DNA of 36,484 nt from Candidatus Moraniibacteriota bacterium (GTDB lineage: Bacteria > Patescibacteriota > Minisyncoccia > Moranbacterales > UBA9337): NCBI GenBank assembly GCA_036584565.1, contig JAZHDF010000097.1, forward strand, positions 1 to 36,484, written 5' to 3'. This document shows, piece by piece, positions 11,939-24,487 of the stretch. The translations under genes and the position numbers were made by a program. Numbering within the stretch: the first letter of the stretch is position 1; each line of letters starts with the position of its first letter. The notes below the pieces were generated by a model that made no database searches, was not told the DNA's origin, and saw only the letters and a program-made list of their open reading frames with translations.

Positions 11939-12391
11939 AAAACAAAAAAATTAATAACGAAAACAAAAATTTATCACATTTCAATTTTAACCGATATTCG
12001 ACCGTTTCGCAACCGCCGCAAAAAAATCAAGCTCACATATTTTCCCCTATTCGACGGTTATCCTTTCTTTTGTCATAGCAAGATCCCGACTCAATCTATA
12101 ATTTTGCCGGAGCGGGCTTGCAGTCCAGTCTGCTCGTTCCTGTCTCATAAACTGTCTTAATTCTTTATATTTTAAATGATTTATCAACCAAAGATAAAAT
12201 TGGGTTTTAAATTTATTTTTTCTCTTTGAGGTTTGTCATTTCTTTGGTATAATTAAAATACCTTAAAAACAAAAACGGAGCGGAATTAAATTTTCCATCA
12301 AAAAATAAATTTCTGTAAAAAAACCGCTTCTAATTTTTAGTTTGGAATTTTGTTTTTTTATTATTTTTATTCAATTTTTCTTTTCTATCTT

Positions 12392-14665
12392 ATGCCTGCC
12401 CGAAAACAAAAAAAAATATTTCCGGAAATAAACGAGATAATGATTGTTAACAACAAGAAGCTTGATCCTTATTTGGAGGTTGTTAATTTTTCTTCCCGCA
12501 ATGTAGATCAAAAAAAACTGGGTACGATTTTAGGAATTTTTGAAATCAAAGATCTTTCCGACGACTCGGCCTATATAGTAAACTTCCTTTCTTCGGTAGC
12601 CAAAAAAACTTATTTCGCCGGCCACCAAAAAAGCCCCGAGGAAAGCTTTGAATCGACTTTGGCCAAAGTCAATTTATCTCTGGCTGAAATCGCCAATCAC
12701 GGCAATGTCAATTGGATTGGCAAGATAGACGCCGTCCTCTGTTCAATCTTTGAAGATCAAATAAATTTCAGCGTTTCCGGCGATGCCAAAGTTCTGCTCC
12801 TGAGAAATCAAAAATTAATGGAAATCAGCGAAAGTCTCTCCCCCAAAGATGAAGCGGCCAATCCGCTTAAAACTTTTACCGATATCGCCAGCGGAAAATT
12901 GGAAAAAGGAGACAAATTAATCTTAACCACCGATGATATTTCCCATGTTTTTAGCCTTGAAGAAATAGAGAGAAACGCCCTTGAGTTTGAAAATGAAAAA
13001 TTTATCCGATTTTTGAGAACCGCACTGATAAACGAATTGGAGATCGCCGGTACGATTATCTTGGATATGAAGGAAAAAATAGAAAATTCGGAACAAAAAA
13101 TGATCTCGGAGGGAGAAATTGATCCGATTCCTCCGACTACCGAAAAAAACCTATTCGGCAGCGCCGCTTTTGACAAAAAACCCGAGGATTCGGTTAAGGC
13201 GGAAATAGAAAAAAAACTCTCCGAAAAAAATCAAGAAAAAACCTACACCAACCAAAAAACCGGCCACATTTATATCACCGACTCGGGAGATGATTTCTCC
13301 TCTCCGGAAGAAAACAAATTTGAAACCTGGCTTATCATCGCCAAAGAAAAAATGTCCGATTTCGGATTTTGGTTTCAGGAAAATTATTTGAGGAAATTTA
13401 AGTATCGAACCAAAAAATTTATCGAAAATATTTTTAAAAAACCGATTGAGCCGGATGATCACACTTGGTCGGAAAAGGCTCCCGCTCCGAAAGAACCCCT
13501 TCCAAAAACTTCCTCTTCTCAAAATACCAAGAACTTCTCTCGAAAATTCCTCTCTCGTCTAAATGACCTAATGCCCGAGCGAAAAACCGCTCCGCCCTCT
13601 CTGTCCGCGCAAAATTCACCGCTACCCGAAATTACAAAAAATTCAAAAATAAAATTTCCGATCAATTGCTCCTCGTCGGTTAAAAATAAATTTAATTTCA
13701 AAAAAATAACCGACTTCTTCGGTTTAATCATTCCTCGCTTTTCCAAAATCAAACAAAATTTTATCGAGATGAGCCCCCGCAAAAAAATAATTACCTTGTT
13801 TTTGATTTTATTCATCGTAATTGTTCCTTTTTGGTTTTTCAAAAAAGAGGAAAACTCTGCCGTTGTTAATGAAATTTCCAGTCCGACCGAGGATTTAAAG
13901 ATTAATCCTTCTTCCGAGTTCTACAAAGAATCGGAAAAAATTTATTCCGACTCGGAATTTATCGGCGCGTTTATCTTTAACAATTCCGTTTTTGCCGTCG
14001 GCCGAAATAGGATCGCTTCCGTAACGGATAACAAAGAGTATCCTTTCCCGGAAGATTTTAAAAATGCCCGAAACTATTGTTTCATGAATGATTTAAATTT
14101 GCTATTTTTGATTAACGAAGAAAATCTTCTCATAAGTTTTAGTCCGATTTCTCTCAAATTTAACAGCGATGCTATCAATATCCCCGCTAACGCCGAAATT
14201 AAAACTATCGGCTCTTATCTGACCTATCTATATATCGCCGACTCATTTAATCGACAAATCTATCGTTATCCCCGAGCGGAAAACGGTTTCGGAGAAAAGA
14301 TAAATTGGCTCCAGGACGATATCGACTTTGAAAACGTCACCGGAATGGCGATTGACGGCAATCTTTATTTAAGCAAAAAAGATTCCGTTATAAAATTATT
14401 TAACCGAAAGATTCAAAATTTTGAACTCAAAAAAGACGGCGAATCTGCCATCGACAAAATATTTACCGATGGAAACACCGCCTCTCTCTATGTCTTGGAC
14501 AAGACCAATGGAGAGCTCGATAAATACAACAAAGACGGCGACAAGCAAGCGTTTGTTTCCAATCAGGCGCTAACCGAAGCCGTCGATATTCGGATTGATG
14601 AAAAAAATTCTCTGGCCTATTTCATCACGCCGGAAGGAATGTTTAAAATAGCTCTTCCGCAATAA
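12392..14665 (+). CDS. Membrane protein with N-terminal PP2C/PPM-like fold, one transmembrane helix and a C-terminal NHL-like beta-propeller
   Basis: SVSGDAKVLLLRN, GKLEKGDKLILTTDD; TM IITLFLILFIVIVPFWFF; YLYIADS, GMAIDGNLY, LYVLDK repeats. Start uncertain (12350/12392/12440). Confidence 0.7.
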   Translation: MPARKQKKIFPEINEIMIVNNKKLDPYLEVVNFSSRNVDQKKLGTILGIFEIKDLSDDSAYIVNFLSSVAKKTYFAGHQKSPEESFESTLAKVNLSLAEIANHGNVNWIGKIDAVLCSIFEDQINFSVSGDAKVLLLRNQKLMEISESLSPKDEAANPLKTFTDIASGKLEKGDKLILTTDDISHVFSLEEIERNALEFENEKFIRFLRTALINELEIAGTIILDMKEKIENSEQKMISEGEIDPIPPTTEKNLFGSAAFDKKPEDSVKAEIEKKLSEKNQEKTYTNQKTGHIYITDSGDDFSSPEENKFETWLIIAKEKMSDFGFWFQENYLRKFKYRTKKFIENIFKKPIEPDDHTWSEKAPAPKEPLPKTSSSQNTKNFSRKFLSRLNDLMPERKTAPPSLSAQNSPLPEITKNSKIKFPINCSSSVKNKFNFKKITDFFGLIIPRFSKIKQNFIEMSPRKKIITLFLILFIVIVPFWFFKKEENSAVVNEISSPTEDLKINPSSEFYKESEKIYSDSEFIGAFIFNNSVFAVGRNRIASVTDNKEYPFPEDFKNARNYCFMNDLNLLFLINEENLLISFSPISLKFNSDAINIPANAEIKTIGSYLTYLYIADSFNRQIYRYPRAENGFGEKINWLQDDIDFENVTGMAIDGNLYLSKKDSVIKLFNRKIQNFELKKDGESAIDKIFTDGNTASLYVLDKTNGELDKYNKDGDKQAFVSNQALTEAVDIRIDEKNSLAYFITPEGMFKIALPQ

Positions 14666-14711: not shown

Positions 14712-14981
14712 TTAAGCGATACTCACCAATTTCCAATTGTCTCCCTCGACTTTGCTGATTTTAAAATCGATATTTTCATAACCGGCTTGTTTCAAAATTT
14801 CCTCCAAACCGAATCTGAGATTATCGAGACTGATATCTTCCGCATGTTCCTCAAATCCGTCGTGGGCCAGAGAAACTGTCCCCAATTCCAAGACTACTTG
14901 AGAAATTTTTTCCAGATTATTTTCCCGGGCAACTTCTTTTATTTTATCGGCGATTTCTTTGGCCAAAATAAAATCATGCAT
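14712..14981 (-). CDS. hypA: HypA/HybF-like nickel metallochaperone lacking the zinc finger
   Basis: MHDFILAKEI N-terminal Ni motif, KISQVVLELG, DNLRFGL; no cysteines; downstream of hydrogenase genes. Confidence 0.75.
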   Translation of the reverse strand: MHDFILAKEIADKIKEVARENNLEKISQVVLELGTVSLAHDGFEEHAEDISLDNLRFGLEEILKQAGYENIDFKISKVEGDNWKLVSIA

Positions 14982-15025: not shown

Positions 15026-15571
15026 TCAGACAATAACATTTCCCCTTCCGATTGAGGGCAAATCTCCTTCGTATTGAGTTAGAGCTATCACTATATCCCC
15101 CTCGGTATCTTTTATTTGGGCCAGAGCCAAAGCTCGATGCATCCCCTCTATCAAAACAATTTTTCCCTCATTAATAACTCCGGTCAACATTGTTTGGTAA
15201 GGAAAATTTTTTATTATCGATTTGACTTTCTTATTTTCCGCTACCGTCTGATGGGTTAAGATATCTCCAATCATCTTTGTCTTCTCTCCTTGATAACATT
15301 TTTCTTGCCACCCGCGGGACGGCACGCCGTAAATCAAATTAACATCTTCATTCGGCTTGATAATGCGATAAACTTTCCACAAACATTTCTCCGGCTCCAA
15401 CGGCGCGACATAATTATTGCGCCAGTCGTCCCAAGACTCAAATCCGCGCTCCAGCCAATGCGCCTCCCAGTCTTTTTGATAAGCCTCATAAGATTTCCAG
15501 ATGGAAAAAATCTCGCTCCATTTAATGCCGCCTGCGTACTCGAACGATTCGTACTGCTGAGGAATTTTCAT
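15026..15571 (-). CDS. Hypothetical protein with a ParB/Srx-like motif
   Basis: 181-aa ORF; KIVLIEGMHRALAL resembles the ParB-N (D/E)GxHR motif. Confidence 0.6.
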   Translation of the reverse strand: MKIPQQYESFEYAGGIKWSEIFSIWKSYEAYQKDWEAHWLERGFESWDDWRNNYVAPLEPEKCLWKVYRIIKPNEDVNLIYGVPSRGWQEKCYQGEKTKMIGDILTHQTVAENKKVKSIIKNFPYQTMLTGVINEGKIVLIEGMHRALALAQIKDTEGDIVIALTQYEGDLPSIGRGNVIV

Positions 15572-15596: not shown

Positions 15597-17228
15597 TTAA
15601 AAAATAGTCAGTCCGGTGGGAGAACCAGGTGCACCGATTGTACTTCCCGATAATTCCATCGGGGTTAAACCGTCGGAAAGTTGCCAACCGCGAGAGCCGA
15701 TATGGGCGAATTGATCAGTTTGCAATTTACCGTTAGCGTCAATTAATGCCGATTCGCTGGTATTTTTAAGATTGTCTATGTCTACAAAGTCCAACCATGG
15801 ATTAATCGTCCATATTGTTTTGTCTTTATCATAGCCAATGTAGTCACGCATCCAAAATTTAGATGTTTCCGAATTACTATTGATTATCACATTTTCGCTT
15901 ATAAGAGTGTCTCCGAATTTACCCGGATTTACGCCATCATAATAAGCCAAGATAATATCTCCAACTATCGTATTTCTATAATAGTATGAATTTGTTGTAT
16001 ATCTTTCCGGGCTGAAAGATGAAGTGTTTATTCTTATTGAGCAAGTTGTGTAGGGTGTTATATTTGAGGTACCGGTTGTCTTGAAATAATTGAAACAAAT
16101 TTCAACTTTATCTGTTCCATACATAAAGCCATTAACAACGGCGCCTATTGCCTCTACGCTTGCCATTACAATACTATTACCCCTAATAGATGATCCATCA
16201 AGATCATCCTTTACAGCAAGGGCAACATTAATACCGGAAATAGATGTTCCACCGTTGTTGTGAATTATATTATTTTCTATTAAGGTTTTGGGAGCATCAT
16301 ATAGACTACCAATAGCGGCTACACCCGTAAAGTCTGAAAAAACATTATCTTGGATGGTAAAATAATAGCCCAACCCTGATTCACGCGTAAAAAGAAATCC
16401 CTGATTGTTATTTTGTGACACCGGAGATGATATGCCGCTGAAAGTACAGCGGCGCACAGTTTTGTAATTTTGTACCGAAGACATTCTCACGGCGTGGCCG
16501 CTGATAAAATTGCTGAAATTAAGATTATCAAAATATACATTTCCCGCAATTATTGATCCCCACCCTTCTACATTTACGGTTTCGCTAGGGTATCCAATCC
16601 ATGTGAACGGGCTATTTCCGATGTTTGTTGGTTGCCGTTCTACAAGATCAGCCATCTCTGCATATTCAGGACCGTCGTTGCTAATTCCAAATGGAGCAAG
16701 TGCATAGTTTCCCCCTCGAAAATACACAATGGCTGTTTTATCCGTTACGCTCTCCAACATATTCAAGATTGTCTTGAACGGCTGAGAAAAAGATCCGGTC
16801 GAATTCCCATCATAATAACTGTCTATAAAGAAAAACCCCGCGTTGGATATAACTATCTCCCATGTCGTCGAAACTGTGGTTGATTCAGAGTCTGTAACTG
16901 ACAGTGTGATATTCCCGGAGTTTGACTGAGGATTAGGCCAAGAGATTTCTCCGGTTCTAGGATTGATAGTCATTCCCTCGGGTTGATTGGAGAGTGAATA
17001 AGTATAAGGATAGGTTCCTCCGATTACTGCGGCTCGGATATTGTATTCGATTCCGGGATAAGCTCGGAAAATTCGGTTGGTGGAAGGGATAGCCGGGTCA
17101 CCGGTTCCGGCCGGTTTGATATTAGTTATTTCTAAAGGAAAGAAAGCCGCTTGAGAAGTTTTTGAAAAGATAAAAAAACTTAAGATTAAGAAAAGAGAAA
17201 TGAAAATTATTTTTGTTTTTTTATTCAT
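15597..17228 (-). CDS. Array gene A: secreted protein with putative Ig (He_PIG-like) domain and pectin-lyase-like beta-helix
   Basis: Signal peptide, GGTYPYTYSL..PEGMTINPRTGEISW, TGSFSQPFKTI/VYFRGGNY, IQDNVF/IENNII repeats, C-terminal SPTGLTIF. Confidence 0.85.
   Translation of the reverse strand: MNKKTKIIFISLFLILSFFIFSKTSQAAFFPLEITNIKPAGTGDPAIPSTNRIFRAYPGIEYNIRAAVIGGTYPYTYSLSNQPEGMTINPRTGEISWPNPQSNSGNITLSVTDSESTTVSTTWEIVISNAGFFFIDSYYDGNSTGSFSQPFKTILNMLESVTDKTAIVYFRGGNYALAPFGISNDGPEYAEMADLVERQPTNIGNSPFTWIGYPSETVNVEGWGSIIAGNVYFDNLNFSNFISGHAVRMSSVQNYKTVRRCTFSGISSPVSQNNNQGFLFTRESGLGYYFTIQDNVFSDFTGVAAIGSLYDAPKTLIENNIIHNNGGTSISGINVALAVKDDLDGSSIRGNSIVMASVEAIGAVVNGFMYGTDKVEICFNYFKTTGTSNITPYTTCSIRINTSSFSPERYTTNSYYYRNTIVGDIILAYYDGVNPGKFGDTLISENVIINSNSETSKFWMRDYIGYDKDKTIWTINPWLDFVDIDNLKNTSESALIDANGKLQTDQFAHIGSRGWQLSDGLTPMELSGSTIGAPGSPTGLTIF
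15631..15703. repeat. 3' constant block shared by array genes A and C (second copy 18131-18203)
   Basis: 73 bp with one mismatch; encodes IGSRGWQLSDGLTPMELSGSTIGA. Confidence 0.95.
16926..17156. repeat. 5' constant block shared by array genes A and D (second copy about 21601-21831)
   Basis: 77 identical amino acids (SQAAFFPLEIT...ISWPNPQ) with only synonymous nucleotide differences. Confidence 0.95.
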
Positions 17229-17251
17229 ATCTTAAACTATATCACATTGAG
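17207..17251. repeat. 45-bp junction direct repeat, copy 1
   Basis: TTATTTTTGTTTTTTTATTCATATCTTAAACTATATCACATTGAG, identical to 18067-18111. Confidence 0.97.
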
Positions 17252-18088
17252 GCCAGTGGGGGGATTAATGAAATCCCCATCTGGGGGTACATATCCTTCA
17301 AAGATAACCATCTCATCCATCCAATGCTCAAAAGGCTCAGTGGCTTCAGATGAAGGATAAAAAGTAAACCCGCTAAACGTAGTTGAAGCATTTTCATCAG
17401 CTGATTGATTTATAAAAGTTGCAACCAGCTCATCATTAATCCATATTTTAGACTCCCCATCACTTCCTCCAAGTGTCGTCGGCATTTTTATCCAATGACG
17501 AACATTTGTCCAATATGCACCGAAGCCAGATTGTCCTCCAGCCGTAAAATTAAATTCAAAACGACCATCCGGATTATAATAATTGTTACCCTCGATTAAT
17601 TCAGAATAACCATAACCTATATGAACGGATGTTACTTTGTCAGTAATGATCATTGGCCCGGTGTTAACAGACGAATAATAGTCATCACCAAAATGCGAAT
17701 TCATGGTTGCAAAATAATAAGAGCTCCCGGTTAAAGGGCGGAAAGCCTTTATGTTGCCACCGGCAATATCTCGCGCTGACTTATTAAATTTTATCCAATA
17801 ATAAACAGTTATCTCGTCTTTTCCTATGACGCTCGCTGTCCCGATAGCTGTATTCCCTGCTCCATACAAAGAACCGTTCGGAGAAGCTGTTAATTTTAAA
17901 CATTCTCCCGATACGCATCCCAGAGATTCAACGGTTCTTAACCATCCACTGGAACTTCCGGCTCCAGCGCAAGTTTCTGTGACACAATTTTGATACAAAA
18001 TATCTCCATCCAAAGCAAAGGATGCCTCTGGAAGCAATAGAATAAAAAATATTAATGTTAAGCTAGTTATTTTTGTTTTTTTATTCAT
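17237..18088 (-). CDS. Array gene B: secreted protein with probable concanavalin-A/polysaccharide-lyase-like beta-sandwich
   Basis: Signal peptide; EITVYYWIKF, WTNVRHWIKM, DGESKIWINDELV, HWMDEMVI; C-terminal PPTGLNVI. Confidence 0.75.
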   Translation of the reverse strand: MNKKTKITSLTLIFFILLLPEASFALDGDILYQNCVTETCAGAGSSSGWLRTVESLGCVSGECLKLTASPNGSLYGAGNTAIGTASVIGKDEITVYYWIKFNKSARDIAGGNIKAFRPLTGSSYYFATMNSHFGDDYYSSVNTGPMIITDKVTSVHIGYGYSELIEGNNYYNPDGRFEFNFTAGGQSGFGAYWTNVRHWIKMPTTLGGSDGESKIWINDELVATFINQSADENASTTFSGFTFYPSSEATEPFEHWMDEMVIFEGYVPPDGDFINPPTGLNVI

Positions 18089-18111
18089 ATCTTAAACTAT
18101 ATCACATTGAG
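18067..18111. repeat. 45-bp junction direct repeat, copy 2
   Basis: Identical to 17207-17251; spans the stop of gene C, an 8-nt spacer and the start of gene B. Confidence 0.97.
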
Positions 18112-19632
18112 TCCGGTGGGAGAATTGGGGGCACCGATTGTACTTCCGGATAATTCCATCGGGGTTAAACCGTCGGAAAGTTGCCAACCGCGAGAGCCGA
18201 TATATTCCATATATGATTCCTGCAAAACACCTTCTAATTCTATGGAGTCGGTCATGGTTCCGGTGAGATTATCAAGAATTACAACTCTGCTCATATCTAA
18301 TACTTCGGATGTATCCACAGCACTACCGGAGTTATGAATTATTATATTTTCCCCAATGTTAAATGGGCCGTCAGCACTGTCCGTTGTATTGTAAAAATTT
18401 ATCGGCCCCTCGAGAGTGTTTCTGTAAATATCAACGGAACCAACATTAGAGTTCTGATTTAATTCAATAGAGTTTCCGCTAATATTTTTGATATAGTTAT
18501 AGAGGATTTCATATTGACCACCGGAAACAGCTTGACTATTCATATTACCACCAATAGGATGATTAGGAACATTGTAAATATAGTTTCCGCGAACTGTTGG
18601 CCTGATAACATCCTGCTTAAGGGCTATACCTTCAATTGCACCACTTCCTGTCGTGTCGATTATGTCATAAATGATATTATTTTCAATTAACATCTTGGTT
18701 GTTGAATACACCTTAATTGCAGCTCCGTGATTTAAAGTATGCAGCATATTATCTTGTATCACGATATAGTTTTGTTGCGGGCCTTGTGCCCAAAGTCTAA
18801 AAAAAGACTGATTATTAAATCCATCCGTAGGTCCAAGGTCATACAATGTCATGCGTCTATATACAGTCCCGGTTTGATTATTTTGGATTCCATAGCTGGT
18901 CATATTTTTTATAGTTAGACCGTCAATATAAATTCGATTGTCTCCATTTGAGTAAAAAGCAATACTATAAGGCTCTTTTTTAAAATCCAATTCGGGATTT
19001 TCGCCAGGATATGCCAGCCACACCATAGGTTTGTAATTTCCGACAAATGGAACCCATGTTCCATCTTCGATATATGCATCCAGATAATATGTACCTGTCT
19101 TCCAATAGACGAACTCTCCGGGATGATAAGAAATACTCTTTGATGCATAATCATCCCCACCATAAATATCTTTCATGCTTTTCCATGGGTTGTCTTCTTT
19201 GCCGGTGCCACCCTCTGCTATACTTTTTCCGTTTACAGCATCAACAAATAAAAAACCTGAATTTGTTACAGTAATTGTCCAACTCACTGTTTGAATGTTT
19301 GATTCAGAATCAATTACTTGAGCGGTAACGTTATAGGGAGACGCATTTATTATCGGATTTAACCAAGATATTTCTCCGGTTCTTGAATTTATCGTCATTC
19401 CGGAAGGAGCTGTCGTCAAAGAATAGATATAAGGATAAAGTCCTCCTATCACCGCCATTCTGACATTATATTCAAGACCCGGATATGCTTTATAGAATCT
19501 ATTGGTGATATCCAACCCAGCCCGCGGTTGAATTATTTCCAGAGGATAATTGGCAGCTTGAACTTTTTGGGTAGCTAAAAAAAAGCTTAAAGAAAAAAAT
19601 ACTGTAAGGATTATTTTTGTTTTTTTATTCAT
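18097..19632 (-). CDS. Array gene C: secreted putative-Ig plus beta-helix protein
   Basis: Signal peptide, GGLYPYIYSLTTAPSGMTINSRTGEISW, GTGKEDNPWKS, IQDNML/IENNII/VRGNYI, C-terminal SPTGLNVI. Confidence 0.85.
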   Translation of the reverse strand: MNKKTKIILTVFFSLSFFLATQKVQAANYPLEIIQPRAGLDITNRFYKAYPGLEYNVRMAVIGGLYPYIYSLTTAPSGMTINSRTGEISWLNPIINASPYNVTAQVIDSESNIQTVSWTITVTNSGFLFVDAVNGKSIAEGGTGKEDNPWKSMKDIYGGDDYASKSISYHPGEFVYWKTGTYYLDAYIEDGTWVPFVGNYKPMVWLAYPGENPELDFKKEPYSIAFYSNGDNRIYIDGLTIKNMTSYGIQNNQTGTVYRRMTLYDLGPTDGFNNQSFFRLWAQGPQQNYIVIQDNMLHTLNHGAAIKVYSTTKMLIENNIIYDIIDTTGSGAIEGIALKQDVIRPTVRGNYIYNVPNHPIGGNMNSQAVSGGQYEILYNYIKNISGNSIELNQNSNVGSVDIYRNTLEGPINFYNTTDSADGPFNIGENIIIHNSGSAVDTSEVLDMSRVVILDNLTGTMTDSIELEGVLQESYMEYIGSRGWQLSDGLTPMELSGSTIGAPNSPTGLNVI

Positions 19633-19638
19633 ATTTTA

Positions 19639-20278
19639 GTCATAACACCCCCGCCAAAGGCGGTGGCTTGATGAGTAGGGTCGCCTCAAAGGCGACTTTT
19701 ACCATCGTTGGTTAATTAATTGGTTTTTTAGAACTTGTCATCATTCTCATTCTGCTCCCTGATATATTTTTTGATTATTTCTTCATCAAATCCGACTGTT
19801 GATACCGCATAGCCTCGAGCCCAAAAATGTGCTCCGGTGTAATTCCTGTCTTTTCCTTGCATTCGGGCGATTGCGATAGCACTTTTTCCTTTCATAAATC
19901 CTATCACGCTGGCTACGACATATTTGGGAGGAATTTCAATGCACATGTGCACATGGTCTTTGGTGAGATTTCCTTCGGTAATTTTGCTTTCTTTTTGGGT
20001 TGCCAGCTCATGCAGTATCTTTCTGAGCTCTTCTCTGATTTTACCATAAATTATCGCTTTTCTTCTTTTGGGGATGAATATTACGTGATATTTGCAATTC
20101 CATTTTGAATGCGATAAACTTTGATATAGATTAGACATAATTTTGTTTTAATGAACGATGACTTCTCATCAAGCCTAATTCATTTTACATCATTATGTCT
20201 TTTTTTGTGGTTGGGGTATAGGTAAAACCTTTTCGAGTCGCACTAGTGGAACTAGTGGTTTACCTTTTGGGAAAAACT
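19639..20278 (-). mobile_element. IS200/IS605-family element carrying tnpA only (IS200-like)
   Basis: Left-end hairpins GGTAAA..CACTAGT/ACTAGTG..TTTACC (20221-20264); right-end hairpins CCGCC-AAA-GGCGG (19651-19663) and GTCGCC/GGCGAC (19680-19696), ending in TGAC on the minus strand. Exact ends inferred. Confidence 0.85.
19728..20138 (-). CDS. tnpA: IS200/IS605 Y1 (HUH) transposase
   Basis: SLSHSKWNCKYHVIFIPKRR, DHVHM (HUH), KGKSA, HFWARGY, KKYIREQ (catalytic Tyr). Confidence 0.96.
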   Translation of the reverse strand: MSNLYQSLSHSKWNCKYHVIFIPKRRKAIIYGKIREELRKILHELATQKESKITEGNLTKDHVHMCIEIPPKYVVASVIGFMKGKSAIAIARMQGKDRNYTGAHFWARGYAVSTVGFDEEIIKKYIREQNENDDKF

Positions 20279-20280
20279 AA

Positions 20281-21903
20281 TTATAATACATTGAGGCCGG
20301 TGGGAGAATTAGGAGATATAATATCTGTATTTTCTACAAAATTCACAGGCGTAGATCCGTCTCCAAACTGCCAACCGTTATAGCCCAAATATTCACTATA
20401 CCCCAAAGTAAGCAAACCATCAGAATCAATAACTGATGCAATGTTAGTGTTATACAAATTATTTTCATCATTAATACAGGCTCTTCTGGCAATTCTTTGC
20501 TGGGCAGTCATGCCTCCATCGTTATTAAAAGAAAGGAAGTTATAAGTCTCATAAGTTGATGCATTACTATTAGGATTAAGAATAATATTGTCATTTAAAT
20601 AATAAGGACCGGAAAAACTACAATTTTCGGGATTAATAAACCTAAAATAAACATCTTGAGTAACGGTGTTACGCCAAAATTTTACTCTCTTGGTTGTCCC
20701 ACTTTCCGTATACCCCTCCGTATTAGTCTCAAAGGCGGTGGCTCTTTCCGTTGACACTTGTCTATAAAAAAGATTATATAAAATTTCCGTATAGTCAGAA
20801 TTGTATAATCTTGCATTGAGAATGAGGCCTTTATCAACAATAACTTTATTTCCCCTTATTGTCGTGTAACTTAGATTTTCTTTTGGCATAAGAGGATGAT
20901 TGAGTCCGTTAATTCCGGCTCCCCCACTGCTATGAATATAATTGTTTTCAATTAATATCTTATTATGATCATAGAGACTTCCGATTGCCGAGGCTCCTGT
21001 GAAATTAAAAAACTCATTATCTTGAATAACAAAAAAACTCCCAAAAGCCCCGCTTCTACTAAGAAACAAAAAGCCTTGATTTTCATTCACAGTCCTAACG
21101 GCAACTATATTGCTCCAGCTACATCGGCGTATCGTCATATAGCTATTATTATTACCCATAAGCATACCGTAGTCGGAAAAATTTGATAAATTTAATTTAT
21201 CAAAATAAGGTGAAGTTGAGAAAACACTAAATAATCTTTCATCTCCGTCAATATTTACGTCCTCGCCCGGATAACCAAGCCATGTTGCGGGATTGTCATT
21301 GAGATTAGTTGCCGCTTTGCCGGTTATTAACGCAATTTCTGCATTGGGATTGGAATTGTGCGCCGGTAAAATATAATTTCCACCTCGAAAATAAACTATC
21401 CTGGAGTTATCTCCGTTTATTGTTGAACTCAACATACTTAATACAGAACTATACGGCTTCTCAATACTTCCTGTTTCATCCCCCGAATAAGCACTATCTA
21501 CAAAAATAAATCCTTCCTCGGTAACCGCAATCGACCAAGAAGTTTGTACAGTGGTATCTTCCGAATCAGTCACGGATAAAGAAATATTATTTGCATCGGT
21601 TTGCGGATTAGGCCAAGAGATTTCTCCGGTTCTGGGATTGATAGTCATTCCCTCGGGTTGATTGGATAATGAATAGGTGTAAGGATAAGTTCCTCCGATG
21701 ACTGCGGCTCGGATATTGTATTCGATGCCGGGATAAGCCCTGAAAATTCGGTTGGTGGAAGGGATAGCCGGGTCGCCGGTTCCGGCCGGTTTGATGTTAG
21801 TTATCTCCAAAGGAAAGAAAGCGGCTTGGGAAATTTTTGAAAAAATAAAAAGACTTAAGATTAAAAGAAAGGTAGCATAAATTATTTTTGTTTTTTTATT
21901 CAT
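20281..21903 (-). CDS. Array gene D: secreted putative-Ig plus beta-helix protein
   Basis: Same N-terminal Ig block as gene A, TGSIEKPYSS/VYFRGGNY, IQDNEF/IENNYI/IRGNKV, C-terminal SPTGLNVL. Confidence 0.85.
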   Translation of the reverse strand: MNKKTKIIYATFLLILSLFIFSKISQAAFFPLEITNIKPAGTGDPAIPSTNRIFRAYPGIEYNIRAAVIGGTYPYTYSLSNQPEGMTINPRTGEISWPNPQTDANNISLSVTDSEDTTVQTSWSIAVTEEGFIFVDSAYSGDETGSIEKPYSSVLSMLSSTINGDNSRIVYFRGGNYILPAHNSNPNAEIALITGKAATNLNDNPATWLGYPGEDVNIDGDERLFSVFSTSPYFDKLNLSNFSDYGMLMGNNNSYMTIRRCSWSNIVAVRTVNENQGFLFLSRSGAFGSFFVIQDNEFFNFTGASAIGSLYDHNKILIENNYIHSSGGAGINGLNHPLMPKENLSYTTIRGNKVIVDKGLILNARLYNSDYTEILYNLFYRQVSTERATAFETNTEGYTESGTTKRVKFWRNTVTQDVYFRFINPENCSFSGPYYLNDNIILNPNSNASTYETYNFLSFNNDGGMTAQQRIARRACINDENNLYNTNIASVIDSDGLLTLGYSEYLGYNGWQFGDGSTPVNFVENTDIISPNSPTGLNVL

Positions 21904-21925: not shown

Positions 21926-23188
21926 TCAATGCACCGCGCAAGAAATACAGGGATCATAAGCGCGGATGAAACCTCTCAGCTTTTGGGTTCTTTTTTCCTC
22001 CGGCAAATCTTTGACCTTGACCAAATACTCCGCGATGTCATTTTCCAGATGACTCAAAGCCTGGGCGGTAGGAGTGATAATATTGGCATTTTTGATATAG
22101 CCTTTATTGTCGATATCAACATGATAATAAAGCGTCCCGCGAGGCGCTTCCACAGCGGCCACTCCCACTCCTTCCCGCACTTGATATTTTTGCGTCAAGG
22201 CGTTTTCCAAATGCAAATTCCTCAAATTTCTCAAAATACCGATCGATTTCTCGATTGCCAAAATTATTTCCACCATTTGATAACTGACATTATGAAAAGG
22301 ATTGAAATCCGGCATCCGATAGCCCAAAGATTCCAAATAATGCTCGGCTCGCGGAGTAAGTTTTTTATAATTATTATTCATTCTGGCTATCGCTCCGACC
22401 ATATAACTGTTTCGATTCCTTGTCTCCACTCGCTTTACCACCTCATTCGGTTTTTGCAACTCATGAAAATTGTTTTCAAATTTTTCCACCGAAATCTTCA
22501 AACCCCTATTGGATACAATATCTCCTTCGTAAATGGAATAATCTCGTCCATTATTTAAACAAACATATTCCGTCTCCCGGGAAAATTCCGGAAATTTAAA
22601 CCGAGCAAAAAACTCTCCCAGTTTTTCCGCCGTTTCCAAGACTTCAATTCCTCTCTCAATCAATGCTTCGATTTCTTCTTTGGCGGGGACCTTTTTGAAT
22701 CCTCCCACCTCGTTGGTCAGAGGATGAATTACTCTGCCTCCGATTATTTTAACCAGCTCCATTCCAAATTCCCTGATTTTTATCGCCATTTTGGTCTCTT
22801 CAGGATATTGTTCCACCAGTTTTAAATCATTATCGATATCCAAAAGATCGGCCAGAGATAAAAAGAAAAGATGCAGAGCGTGAGAGTGGATAATCTGTCC
22901 CCACTCCAATAATTTGCGAAGCTCCTTGGTTTCGTCAGTAATCGGAACTCGCATCGCTTTTTCAATCGATTTAATGGCTGTCAAATTATGCACTACCGGA
23001 CAAATTCCGCAAATCCGTTGAGCGATAACCGGCATATCGCTATAGTGGCGTCCGATCAAAATTCCCTCGATTAAACGAATTCCCTCTTTGACCTCCAGTT
23101 TGGCGCTTTTAACATCGCCGCTAAGCACACTGGCCATAAAACCGGCATGCCCTTCCATTTTATTGATATGGTTTATTTTTATATTCAT
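21926..23188 (-). CDS. [NiFe]-hydrogenase large (alpha) subunit, group 3b-like
   Basis: KMEGH, L1 RICGICPVVH, HSHALHLFFL, EAPRGTLYYH, L2 DPCISCAVH followed directly by the stop. Confidence 0.95.
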   Translation of the reverse strand: MNIKINHINKMEGHAGFMASVLSGDVKSAKLEVKEGIRLIEGILIGRHYSDMPVIAQRICGICPVVHNLTAIKSIEKAMRVPITDETKELRKLLEWGQIIHSHALHLFFLSLADLLDIDNDLKLVEQYPEETKMAIKIREFGMELVKIIGGRVIHPLTNEVGGFKKVPAKEEIEALIERGIEVLETAEKLGEFFARFKFPEFSRETEYVCLNNGRDYSIYEGDIVSNRGLKISVEKFENNFHELQKPNEVVKRVETRNRNSYMVGAIARMNNNYKKLTPRAEHYLESLGYRMPDFNPFHNVSYQMVEIILAIEKSIGILRNLRNLHLENALTQKYQVREGVGVAAVEAPRGTLYYHVDIDNKGYIKNANIITPTAQALSHLENDIAEYLVKVKDLPEEKRTQKLRGFIRAYDPCISCAVH

Positions 23189-23194
23189 AAATTA

Positions 23195-23705
23195 TCTACA
23201 AAGTACGAATTTTACGAAATTACGAACTTGGTTTTTTAATTTAAATTAACAATTCTTTTAAATTTTACACCTTCTCTTGTGAAGTTGATCAATAATCCCA
23301 ATTTTAATCCTGTTGCCCTCAGATAAGAATAGATCTGATTAATATTTCTTTTTGAAAATCCATTACCCTGCTTTAACTCTATAATTATTATATCTTCATA
23401 TAAAAAATCTAATATATATTCCCCTATTTCCTTATCGTACATTTTAACTTTTAATCTCAATTGCTCCCTAAACTTCTTTTTATTTTTTTCAAATACACCA
23501 GCTACTGCTTTTTGATAAAAACTTTCCTTATGTCCGAATCCTATTTTATCCCAAATACTATACATCATCCCTATAATTTCATATGTTTCATCTGGATAAA
23601 TAATTTCCTTATTGGTTTTCATAAAATTATCCCAAAATAAAGTTTAAAATTCTTGTATATACAATATTTGGATTTCGTAATTTCGTAAAATTCGTAATTC
23701 GTAGA
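23195..23705. mobile_element. Inverted-repeat-bounded unit carrying a GxxExxY gene (putative intervening or mobile element)
   Basis: 32-bp inverted repeats at 23195-23226 and 23674-23705 (inner 23 bp perfect, 2 mismatches in the outer 9), flanked by CATAAATTA / CATAATTA. The repeats are certain; mobility is inferred. Confidence 0.65.
23236..23622 (-). CDS. GxxExxY protein (PD-(D/E)xK nuclease superfamily)
   Basis: GHKESFY (GxxExxY), ILDFLYEDIIIIELK, QIYSYL..TGLKLGLLINF; 128 aa. Confidence 0.93.
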   Translation of the reverse strand: MKTNKEIIYPDETYEIIGMMYSIWDKIGFGHKESFYQKAVAGVFEKNKKKFREQLRLKVKMYDKEIGEYILDFLYEDIIIIELKQGNGFSKRNINQIYSYLRATGLKLGLLINFTREGVKFKRIVNLN

Positions 23706-23710
23706 CATAA

Positions 23711-24487
23711 TTAATCTCCCCTCTCCTCAATATCATCCCTTAAGCCGAAAATTTCCGTCACATTTTCAAACTCTTCATCCGTCATCATTTTTTTCAGAGT
23801 GGCACGCATCGCTTTGACATTACCTTTGGGACGCAATCCGCGACAGCCCTGACAACCCATCCTGGCGGTCGGACAAACCGCATTGCAGCCGCCCAAAATC
23901 ATCGGCCCGAAACAAGGCTTGCCTTCCAAAAGCAGGCATTTGTTTCCTCTGGCTTTGCATTCGACACACACCGGCTGATCCGGTATTTGCGGAATCTCTC
24001 CTTTGAGCAAACTTGGGAAATATTTTAAAAACTCTTCTCCGTCAATCGGACAACCGGGAAAGACAAAATCCACTTTGACAAAATTATCCACTTCTTTGAT
24101 CTCCGGATTATTGATGCCTTGAATGTAACGATAAACATGCTTGATAGTATTTTTACCTTCTTGATAATTTTTGATTTCCGGAATTCCACCCATGGCCGCA
24201 CAATTTCCGATCACCACCAAGAGTTTGCTCCTCTCTCTGATTTTTTTCAGTGTTTCAATATTTCCCTCGGTAATCGGCGTCCCTTCGACAAAAGCGATGT
24301 CCAGTTCCACTCCCGAATCTTCCTGATCCTCTATCATTCCCCAATCCACCATTTCCACCTGCTTAACCACCTCCAAAAAACGCTCACCCAAATCCAAGAG
24401 CGCGAACTGACAACCCTCGCAGGAAGTCAGGCTGACTATGGCAATTTTTGGTTTTTTGTTTTCTTCTTTTTTATTTTCTGTTTCCAT
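23711..24487 (-). CDS. [NiFe]-hydrogenase small (delta) Fe-S subunit, group 3-like
   Basis: LTSCEGC, FVEG, IGNCAAMGG, PGCP, VCVECK, CFGP..GGCNAVCP..GCQGCRG. Confidence 0.93.
   Translation of the reverse strand: METENKKEENKKPKIAIVSLTSCEGCQFALLDLGERFLEVVKQVEMVDWGMIEDQEDSGVELDIAFVEGTPITEGNIETLKKIRERSKLLVVIGNCAAMGGIPEIKNYQEGKNTIKHVYRYIQGINNPEIKEVDNFVKVDFVFPGCPIDGEEFLKYFPSLLKGEIPQIPDQPVCVECKARGNKCLLLEGKPCFGPMILGGCNAVCPTARMGCQGCRGLRPKGNVKAMRATLKKMMTDEEFENVTEIFGLRDDIEERGD

Follow-up and report, generated by a model that had tools for sequence, protein, structure and literature searches.

The window analyzed here is contig C97 (36,484 nucleotides, nt) of a Candidatus Moraniibacteriota draft genome (G000; 1.15 Mb, 97 contigs, 37.6% GC). 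Directly after a NiFe hydrogenase gene it carries an array of four genes, named A to D (15597-21903, minus strand), and gene A proved to be a mosaic produced by real recombination. The four co-transcribed-looking genes would encode Sec-exported, polysaccharide-lyase-like proteins, three of them predicted to combine an immunoglobulin (Ig) domain with a beta-helix and one to form a jelly roll. They would belong to a genome-wide set of ~34 exported proteins with a common disordered C-terminal tail. The explanation that we regard as fairly probable is that the array was inserted at this site, that its common ends are addresses kept alike by gene conversion, and that its cores were acquired. The comparisons show cores that are old, deeply diverged and closest to proteins of other organisms, with the leader, the first Ig half and the last ~45 codons overwritten by gene conversion from neighboring paralogues. 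The constant ends would act as addresses rather than as recombination devices. The N-terminal end would serve passage through Sec, and the tail, which resembles the leading strand of a fibronectin type III (Fn3) domain, would probably tether the enzymes to a common surface acceptor by beta-strand addition. Conversion would spread the resident leader and tail onto newly acquired cores.

Shared ends and mosaic structure of the array

Gene D (20281-21903, minus strand, as are all features of the array) encodes 540 amino acids (aa) comprising a signal peptide, a He_PIG Ig domain, a right-handed beta-helix core and the 14-residue tail DIISPNSPTGLNVL. Gene C (18097-19632, 511 aa) likewise encodes a signal peptide and a He_PIG Ig domain, followed by a very diverged beta-helix core and the tail TIGAPNSPTGLNVI. 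Gene B (17237-18088, 283 aa) joins a signal peptide and the tail DGDFINPPTGLNVI to a beta jelly-roll core of the polysaccharide-lyase or lectin kind. Gene A (15597-17228, 543 aa) is the mosaic member, with a D-like 5' third, C-like last ~44 codons and a core of its own.

Direct reading of the sequence showed that the first 22 nt are identical in all four genes (ATGAATAAAAAAACAAAAATAA) and that all four proteins terminate in PTGL followed by three hydrophobic or polar residues and the stop. The peptide MNKKTK was matched four times in the 1.15 Mb genome, and these matches were genes A to D. The 14-codon tails occupy 15600-15641 in A, 17240-17281 in B, 18100-18141 in C and 20284-20325 in D. A repeat search delimited an A/D conversion tract of 300 nt with 90% identity (16927-17226, partner 21602-21901), and the longest identical run of the two proteins was exactly 77 aa. 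The A/C conversion tract (15610-15703, partner 18110-18203) covers 94 nt at 95% identity, and its inner 73 nt (15631-15703 versus 18131-18203) contain one mismatch. Furthermore, a junction repeat of 60 nt with 93% identity (17207-17266, partner 18067-18126) was found. It joins the terminal ~30 nt and the stop of one gene, across a spacer of 8 nt, to the first 22 nt of the gene that follows. Since this repeat spans one gene end, the spacer and the next start, the constant pieces are constant junctions. No exact match to a 33-mer of the junction was found among metagenome contigs.

The codon alignment comprised five Ig plus beta-helix paralogues; a sixth, on contig C71, was recognized later and left out. 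Nucleotide identity between A and D was 0.81-0.95 over the first ~95 codons and 0.33-0.67 thereafter, while that between A and C was 0.19-0.63 and rose to 0.90-0.94 in the last ~45 codons. Among identical residues of A and D, identical codons were used at 57/71 positions in the block versus 70/156 in the core, and the corresponding values for A and C were 26/31 versus 44/96. The informative sites of the A/C/D triplet grouped A with D at 326, A with C at 174 and C with D at 178 positions overall, compared with 3, 34 and 13, respectively, in the last block (Fisher p 7e-14). The maximum chi-squared value of 57.4 was reached by 0/1000 permutations, whose maximum was 18.6. Trees built block by block with ten outside sequences disagreed as well. 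A and D were sisters in the Ig-block tree. In the core tree, by contrast, D clustered at 100/100 support with P0008 and P0003, two foreign metagenomic proteins, and a tree constrained to keep A and D together was rejected as 61 log-likelihood units worse (p-AU 9.65e-7). An initial annotation of this DNA had proposed, from a common start and PTGL-type ending, 77 identical aa of A and D, and 73 bp shared by A and C with one mismatch, that the genes are mosaics made by recombination. Each of these observations was reproduced, and the identity steps, the synonymous codons, the chi-squared maximum and the incongruent core tree uphold the proposal.

An assembly artefact, in which paralogues of a metagenome-assembled genome (MAG) would have been falsely fused into gene A, has in its favor that the draft is split into 97 contigs with tagged genes on many short ones. 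Two tagged genes are truncated by contig ends, presumably because repeats break the assembly, and Logan contigs also break at repeats. However, the A/D block is only 90% identical and therefore unambiguous to an assembler, and the A/C block, at 73-94 nt, is below the usual read length. The Logan contigs of one public run showed 0 differences to the window on either side of each block, with an even depth of ~14 and no alternative joints, and the flanking synteny with six congeners is intact. A chimeric join is very improbable on these grounds. Because the Logan contigs break at repeats, this run is uninformative on population variants, for or against.

Predicted folds and foreign relatives of the cores

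The He_PIG Ig domain (PF05345, gathering score 24 bits) was found in A, C and D with 36.3, 35.5 and 35.0 bits, the E-values for D and C being 2e-8 and 1.4e-8. Gene B had no Pfam or NCBIfam match, and no NCBIfam match was obtained for any of the four proteins. The AlphaFold2 model of A, built from an alignment of 54 sequences with a predicted local distance difference test score (pLDDT) of 89.2, consisted of an Ig domain and a right-handed parallel beta-helix, whose short strands are stacked over residues 130-490. In Foldseek, its best solved matches were a rhamnogalacturonan lyase of polysaccharide lyase (PL) family 9 (5olr/5olq, E 9e-5 to 2.5e-4) and PL6 alginate lyases (8bwk, E 3.6e-4), with template modeling (TM) scores of 0.32-0.46. 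The model of B (24 sequences, pLDDT 84.4) was a concanavalin-like beta jelly roll. It matched the PL20 glucuronan lyase 2zzj (E 3.8e-8, TM 0.52/0.61) and further Aly36B (PL36, E 2e-7) and PL14 alginate lyases, within a range of 4e-8 to 6e-7. Lectin-like domains share this fold, so that the match does not by itself point to enzyme activity. The models thus agree with the initial annotation that B has a different fold, and the lyase-like folds of A and B fit, at the level of fold only, its suggestion of glycan-acting proteins. Acidic polysaccharides, be they those of a host or of the cell's own envelope, are the probable targets that these enzymes would cut or bind.

Block-wise comparison separated the history of the cores from that of the ends. 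D shared 255/361 core residues with the foreign protein P0008, along with 61/77 in the Ig block, 5/27 in the leader and 5/15 in the tail; compared with its neighbor A, it shared 133/353 residues in the core, 74/77 in the Ig block and 20/27 in the leader. A and C were identical at 87/318 core positions, 23/33 positions of the C-terminal block and 11/15 of the tail. A paralogue on contig C88 shared 307/339 core residues with the foreign P0028. The core of B was identical to foreign P0122 at 179/243 positions (74%), with unrelated ends (3/14 in the tail); the best relative of B within the genome reached 31% identity over 97 residues, yet B carries the local first 22 nt and last ~30 nt. Full-length members of the Ig plus beta-helix family numbered six in G000, whereas 40 relatives had none and five of these gave only weak partial matches. 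At the sequence level, the ends resemble neighboring genes and the cores resemble foreign orthologues. As the cores of B and of the Ig plus beta-helix proteins are nearest to foreign proteins and their ends are local, the cores look acquired and the ends look overwritten later.

These comparisons leave little room for a simple old tandem duplication whose ends stayed alike through stronger purifying selection only. The Ig block is indeed conserved family-wide, as the match of D to P0008 illustrates, and the tail is under peptide selection. Nevertheless, identical codons amount to 80-84% in the blocks versus 45-46% in the cores, the core tree rejects the A+D clade, the family is full-length in 0/40 relatives, and the B core is far closer to a foreign protein than to anything in its own genome. 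We therefore rate this alternative as very unlikely. The initial annotation had named congruent domain trees and an invariant array content among strains as signs of such a duplication; the Ig-block and core trees disagree, and the content differs between close relatives, the array being present at this site in 0/6 congeners.

A C-terminal tail shared by unrelated exported proteins

Alignment of 34 open reading frames (ORFs) from the stop yielded a 14-residue tail consensus, D-x-x-[APS]-P-x-x-P-x-G-L-x-[VI]-[LIF]-stop. In its strict form (P-x-G-L-x-[VI]-[LIFM]-stop) the tail ends 29 of 1232 non-overlapping ORFs, and in a looser, relaxed form 34, on 13 contigs; the motif occurred inside ORFs only three times. 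The conserved columns were D in 27/34, P in 32/34 and 34/34, G in 31/34 and L in 33/34 sequences, so that P(-10), P(-7), G(-5) and L(-4) are near-invariant; A, P or S precedes the first P, and S/N, V/I and L/I/F follow G-L. The carriers fell into at least six unrelated groups by BLASTP, with the Pfam domains He_PIG, PKD, TIG or Beta_helix or with none. All four proline, four glycine and six leucine codons are in use, and the last 21 nt have a mean identity of 0.61 between contigs versus 0.78 within the array of the window, which is the mark of selection on the peptide and not of the spread of one DNA segment. In the models of A and B the tails (residues 529-543 and 273-283) had pLDDT values below 52 and no secondary structure; being disordered in both, the tail belongs to neither fold. 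On this sequence pattern the tail looks like a peptide signal under selection, and it is probably a docking tag. A literature search, with supplements outside its reach, found no published description of the 14-residue tail or of such arrays.

The tail might instead be a functionless remnant, namely the first Fn3 strand left behind when multidomain surface proteins were split into single genes. Homologues in other phyla have looser P-x-x-L-x-V-x endings or continue into Fn3 (P0014 carries PF00041), as would be expected of a remnant, and a 1287-aa Fn3-rich, membrane-anchored protein of G000 has repeats that start with DTTPPSISLIDI and similar sequences resembling the tail. Set against this, the stop lies exactly three residues past G-L in 34 ORFs of unrelated families, and the near-invariant P, P, G and L go together with free synonymous variation, where a remnant would decay. 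Little credence is thus given to the remnant.

Another alternative, put forward in the initial annotation, is a recombination-driven cassette library in which the ends exist as crossover or conversion anchors and the cores are swapped to match host glycans. Conversion tracts do begin at gene ends, the foreign-like core of B (179/243 to P0122) is framed by local end sequences, the junction unit is repeated at 93%, and arrays differ among close relatives. Off the array, however, the tail is conserved as a peptide only, with too little identity over the last 21 nt for homologous recombination; a C-terminal end serving as crossover anchor was not borne out, since the tail sits on 29-34 exported proteins. 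Furthermore, all four genes are complete, with their own ATG and leader, and there is therefore no expression site with silent cassettes; the single public run, at its even depth, contained no alternative joints. No site-specific recombinase target was seen, and the one IS200 element present is single-copy. A cassette library consequently appears unlikely to us, and the associated idea of tuning to host exopolysaccharides is speculation.

The window was initially said to lack a dedicated recombinase, which is wrong. A complete-looking insertion of the insertion sequence (IS) type IS200/IS605 lies between D and C (19633-20280, minus strand), with visible hairpin-forming ends and a tnpA gene (19728-20138, 136 aa) encoding a Y1 transposase (PF01797, E 1.6e-35; NF033573, 135.2 bits versus a cut-off of 55). 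This element is single-copy in G000, where one distant Y1 homologue with 25% identity was present on contig C82. Nothing was found that ties the element to the mosaicism.

Distribution and turnover of tagged arrays

Searched as a DNA pattern, the strict tail gave 31 matches in G000 (control 1), two of which end in TGG and not in a stop. G001, the nearest relative, had 8 matches (control 1), and the counts in 39 other relatives were 0-5. In an even sample of 400 genomes from across the phylum, none exceeded five matches, with controls at 0-5; this sample overlaps with that of the relatives in a few genomes, and the strict pattern misses variant tails. Eight consecutive genes of the same families were found in a Moraniibacteriota MAG (L023, 47-11916), where they have their own common leader, MQKQIFK...LPNFASAA, and tails such as APSAPSGLSVM and PPSAPTGLGVN, only three of the eight genes fitting the strict form. 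Multi-family arrays with lineage-specific common ends therefore recur in at least one other lineage of Moranbacteria. A common motif, LPNF(S/A)xA-A, was also noted in the cleavage region of the signal peptides of tagged proteins from two Moranbacteria lineages, in L023 and in many G000 genes; it might be a signal-peptidase site typical of the lineage, or else serve as a second address.

Besides the array in the window, G000 has arrays of 3-7 tagged genes at C1:14924-20783, C71:3-7403, C88:5866-10268, C94:2118-8131 and C44:1-4690. Several arrays lie amid genes for nucleotide-sugar transferases and for glycosyltransferases of the GT4 and WecG/TagA types, or beside an extracytoplasmic function (ECF) sigma factor gene. 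Decayed tagged copies occur at C1:18811-19659 and C88:5866-6534. At three loci that are syntenic between G000 and G001, the number of tagged genes was 6 versus 1 between the HypD-like gene and ManC, 7 versus 2 beside the ECF sigma factor, and 2 (275+360 aa) versus 1 (825 aa) after a UMP-kinase-like gene. At a fourth locus, the RmlA/GalU/TagA-type region, the sets of tagged genes differed as well. The arrays evolve by birth-and-death with conversion at the gene ends.

Six congeners were read at the site of the array in the window (G001, G002, G004, G005, G006 and G008; G003 and G007 were left out). The array is not at the site in any of them, the large hydrogenase subunit gene being directly followed by the gene orf181 and/or a HypA-like gene. 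In G001, whose flanking proteins are ~93% identical, the site is an 81-nt spacer. No target duplication was seen at the insertion site. Of the six, only G001 and G004 have orf181 here, which makes the stretch behind the hydrogenase gene a variable spot in its own right. As one component of the explanation favored above, and with the same measured confidence, the 6.3-kb segment would be a lineage-specific insertion into the hydrogenase operon.

Candidate acceptors of the tail

Docking by strand addition presupposes a strand outside the fold of its own protein, and the tails of A and B lay outside theirs in the models. Donor-strand exchange operates in bacteria of the Candidate Phyla Radiation (CPR), which lack an outer membrane, according to a 2026 preprint on Pam pili (PMC13278184), and a strand-docking mechanism is therefore plausible here. 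Carried to its end, this reading would make the tail a universal donor-strand plug that mimics the leading strand of an Fn3/Ig domain and docks dozens of unrelated secreted enzymes on one surface acceptor, as on a plug-and-play enzyme rack; we offer it tentatively and consider it possible but doubtful. Coupled to it, and just as tentative, is the notion of a minimal cellulosome-like display by strand complementation, in which conversion of the ends would re-address horizontally acquired cores.

In P0266 (contig C88:2894-3646), a membrane helix at the N-terminus is followed by an acidic linker, an Fn3-like domain and, at the C-terminus, a conserved helix (ESIFDLI..AIEDVFGWAMK). Among small Fn3 proteins with a membrane anchor it is the only one close to an array, lying 2.2 kb from that on C88. 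It was set aside as acceptor. It has its own conserved PLEI segment at the strand-A position, and it occurs in 28/41 relatives, most of which have the strict tail at background level, while no homologue was found in G001 or in the Moraniibacteriota MAG array loci. A 141-aa protein beside the Moraniibacteriota array was also rejected, being not Fn3-like by eye and having no homologue in G000.

Genomic context of the array

The NiFe hydrogenase large subunit is 93% identical to proteins named Candidatus Moranbacteria at NCBI (CPR/Patescibacteria). On the minus strand, the order of transcription is hydrogenase small subunit, GxxExxY, large subunit, D, tnpA, C, B, A, orf181 and HypA-like. The small subunit gene lies at 23711-24487 and the large subunit gene (PF00374, E 6.8e-31), which forms the upstream flank of the array, at 21926-23188. 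Between the two, a gene for a GxxExxY protein (23236-23622; TIGR04256, 97 bits) was present, which has the same position in G002, follows the large subunit gene in G008 and is missing from the locus in G004 and G006. Directly after the array, the downstream flank is formed by orf181 (15026-15571, minus strand, 181 aa), for which no Pfam or NCBIfam match was obtained. It is followed by a short HypA-like gene (14712-14981, minus strand, 89 aa), which matched positions 1-39 only of the HypA profile with 26.7 bits, below the cut-off. The HypA-like protein has no cysteines and therefore no zinc site, and it is kept beside the hydrogenase in 6/6 congeners read. A 771-aa ORF on the plus strand (12350-14665) had no Pfam match and is conserved, at 50-90% identity, adjacent to the hydrogenase genes of each of the six congeners. 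No tRNA genes were found within the window, and scans for promoters and terminators were at the level of shuffled sequence (32 versus 30.4, and 9 versus 6.9).

Discussion

Several points weigh against the explanation of an inserted array with addressed ends and acquired cores. The signal peptides were assigned by eye only. The fold matches are generic, with TM scores of 0.3-0.6 and 11-16% identity, and hold at the level of fold only. Enrichment of the strict tail is confined to G000 and G001, and a general machinery for the tail is therefore not evident. No acceptor of the tail was found, P0266 being the only candidate examined and other acceptors not having been searched for. Finally, the Logan contigs do not bridge the short repeats, which leaves the deposited contig as the basis for the assembly across the 73-bp block.

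CPR/Patescibacteria spend their lives attached to other cells, and little is understood of the way in which they present enzymes, given that they have neither an outer membrane nor classic anchors. With ~34 of ~1200 ORFs bearing one tail, this genome provides ready-made material in which a possible new tethering signal can be tested. The window further documents, with statistical backing, the evolution of such a repertoire, in which foreign, deeply diverged cores are taken in, conversion from resident copies replaces the leader and tail of these cores, and arrays grow at hot spots, here within the hydrogenase operon. Should the tail prove to be a docking peptide, it might also be used for displaying proteins on surfaces; otherwise, the arrays are still a well-documented case of concerted evolution confined to gene ends.

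Families with constant trafficking ends that evolve by ectopic conversion include the variant-specific surface proteins (VSPs) of Giardia, which have an invariant C-terminal pentapeptide, the var/rif genes of Plasmodium and the opa genes of Neisseria. As in VSP, var and opa families, the ends are kept, the cores diverge, conversion creates mosaics and the gene content turns over between close relatives. Unlike in these families, unrelated enzyme folds are involved, silent cassettes or a single expression site are lacking, and the proteins end in a free peptide of 14 residues that has no membrane anchor. In place of the promoterless or truncated silent copies of antigenic-variation cassettes, genes A to D are full length, and no alternative joints were present in one run.

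Sortase, exosortase and archaeosortase signals (LPXTG, PEP-CTERM and PGF-CTERM) consist of a motif followed by a transmembrane helix and a basic tail. The tail described here is likewise a short conserved C-terminal motif on many exported proteins of one genome, but all 34 tagged ORFs stop three residues past G-L and A to D have no NCBIfam match. With cohesin-dockerin cellulosomes, the tagged set shares many secreted carbohydrate-active enzymes with one common C-terminal element and a putative scaffold, and some homologues of A elsewhere do carry dockerins (PF00404; P0005, P0021, P0052 and P0059). A dockerin, however, is a folded, Ca-binding domain of ~70 residues, whereas the tail is a disordered peptide of 14 residues and no scaffoldin is known. 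By their predicted folds, A resembles PL9/PL6 lyases and B resembles PL20/PL36/PL14 lyases.

As in the chaperone-usher Pap/Fim pili and the Pam pili of CPR bacteria (PMC13278184), a short strand of one protein would, by analogy, fill an incomplete Ig-like fold of another. Unlike in these pili, the putative donors are enzymes and not pilins, and the strand forms the very C-terminus, behind a proline-rich linker. The general kind, constant-end multigene families with conversion, is already known. The variation seen here, of which the literature search found no published case, lies in the common leader and the single 14-residue tail that a CPR genome uses for several unrelated enzyme folds.

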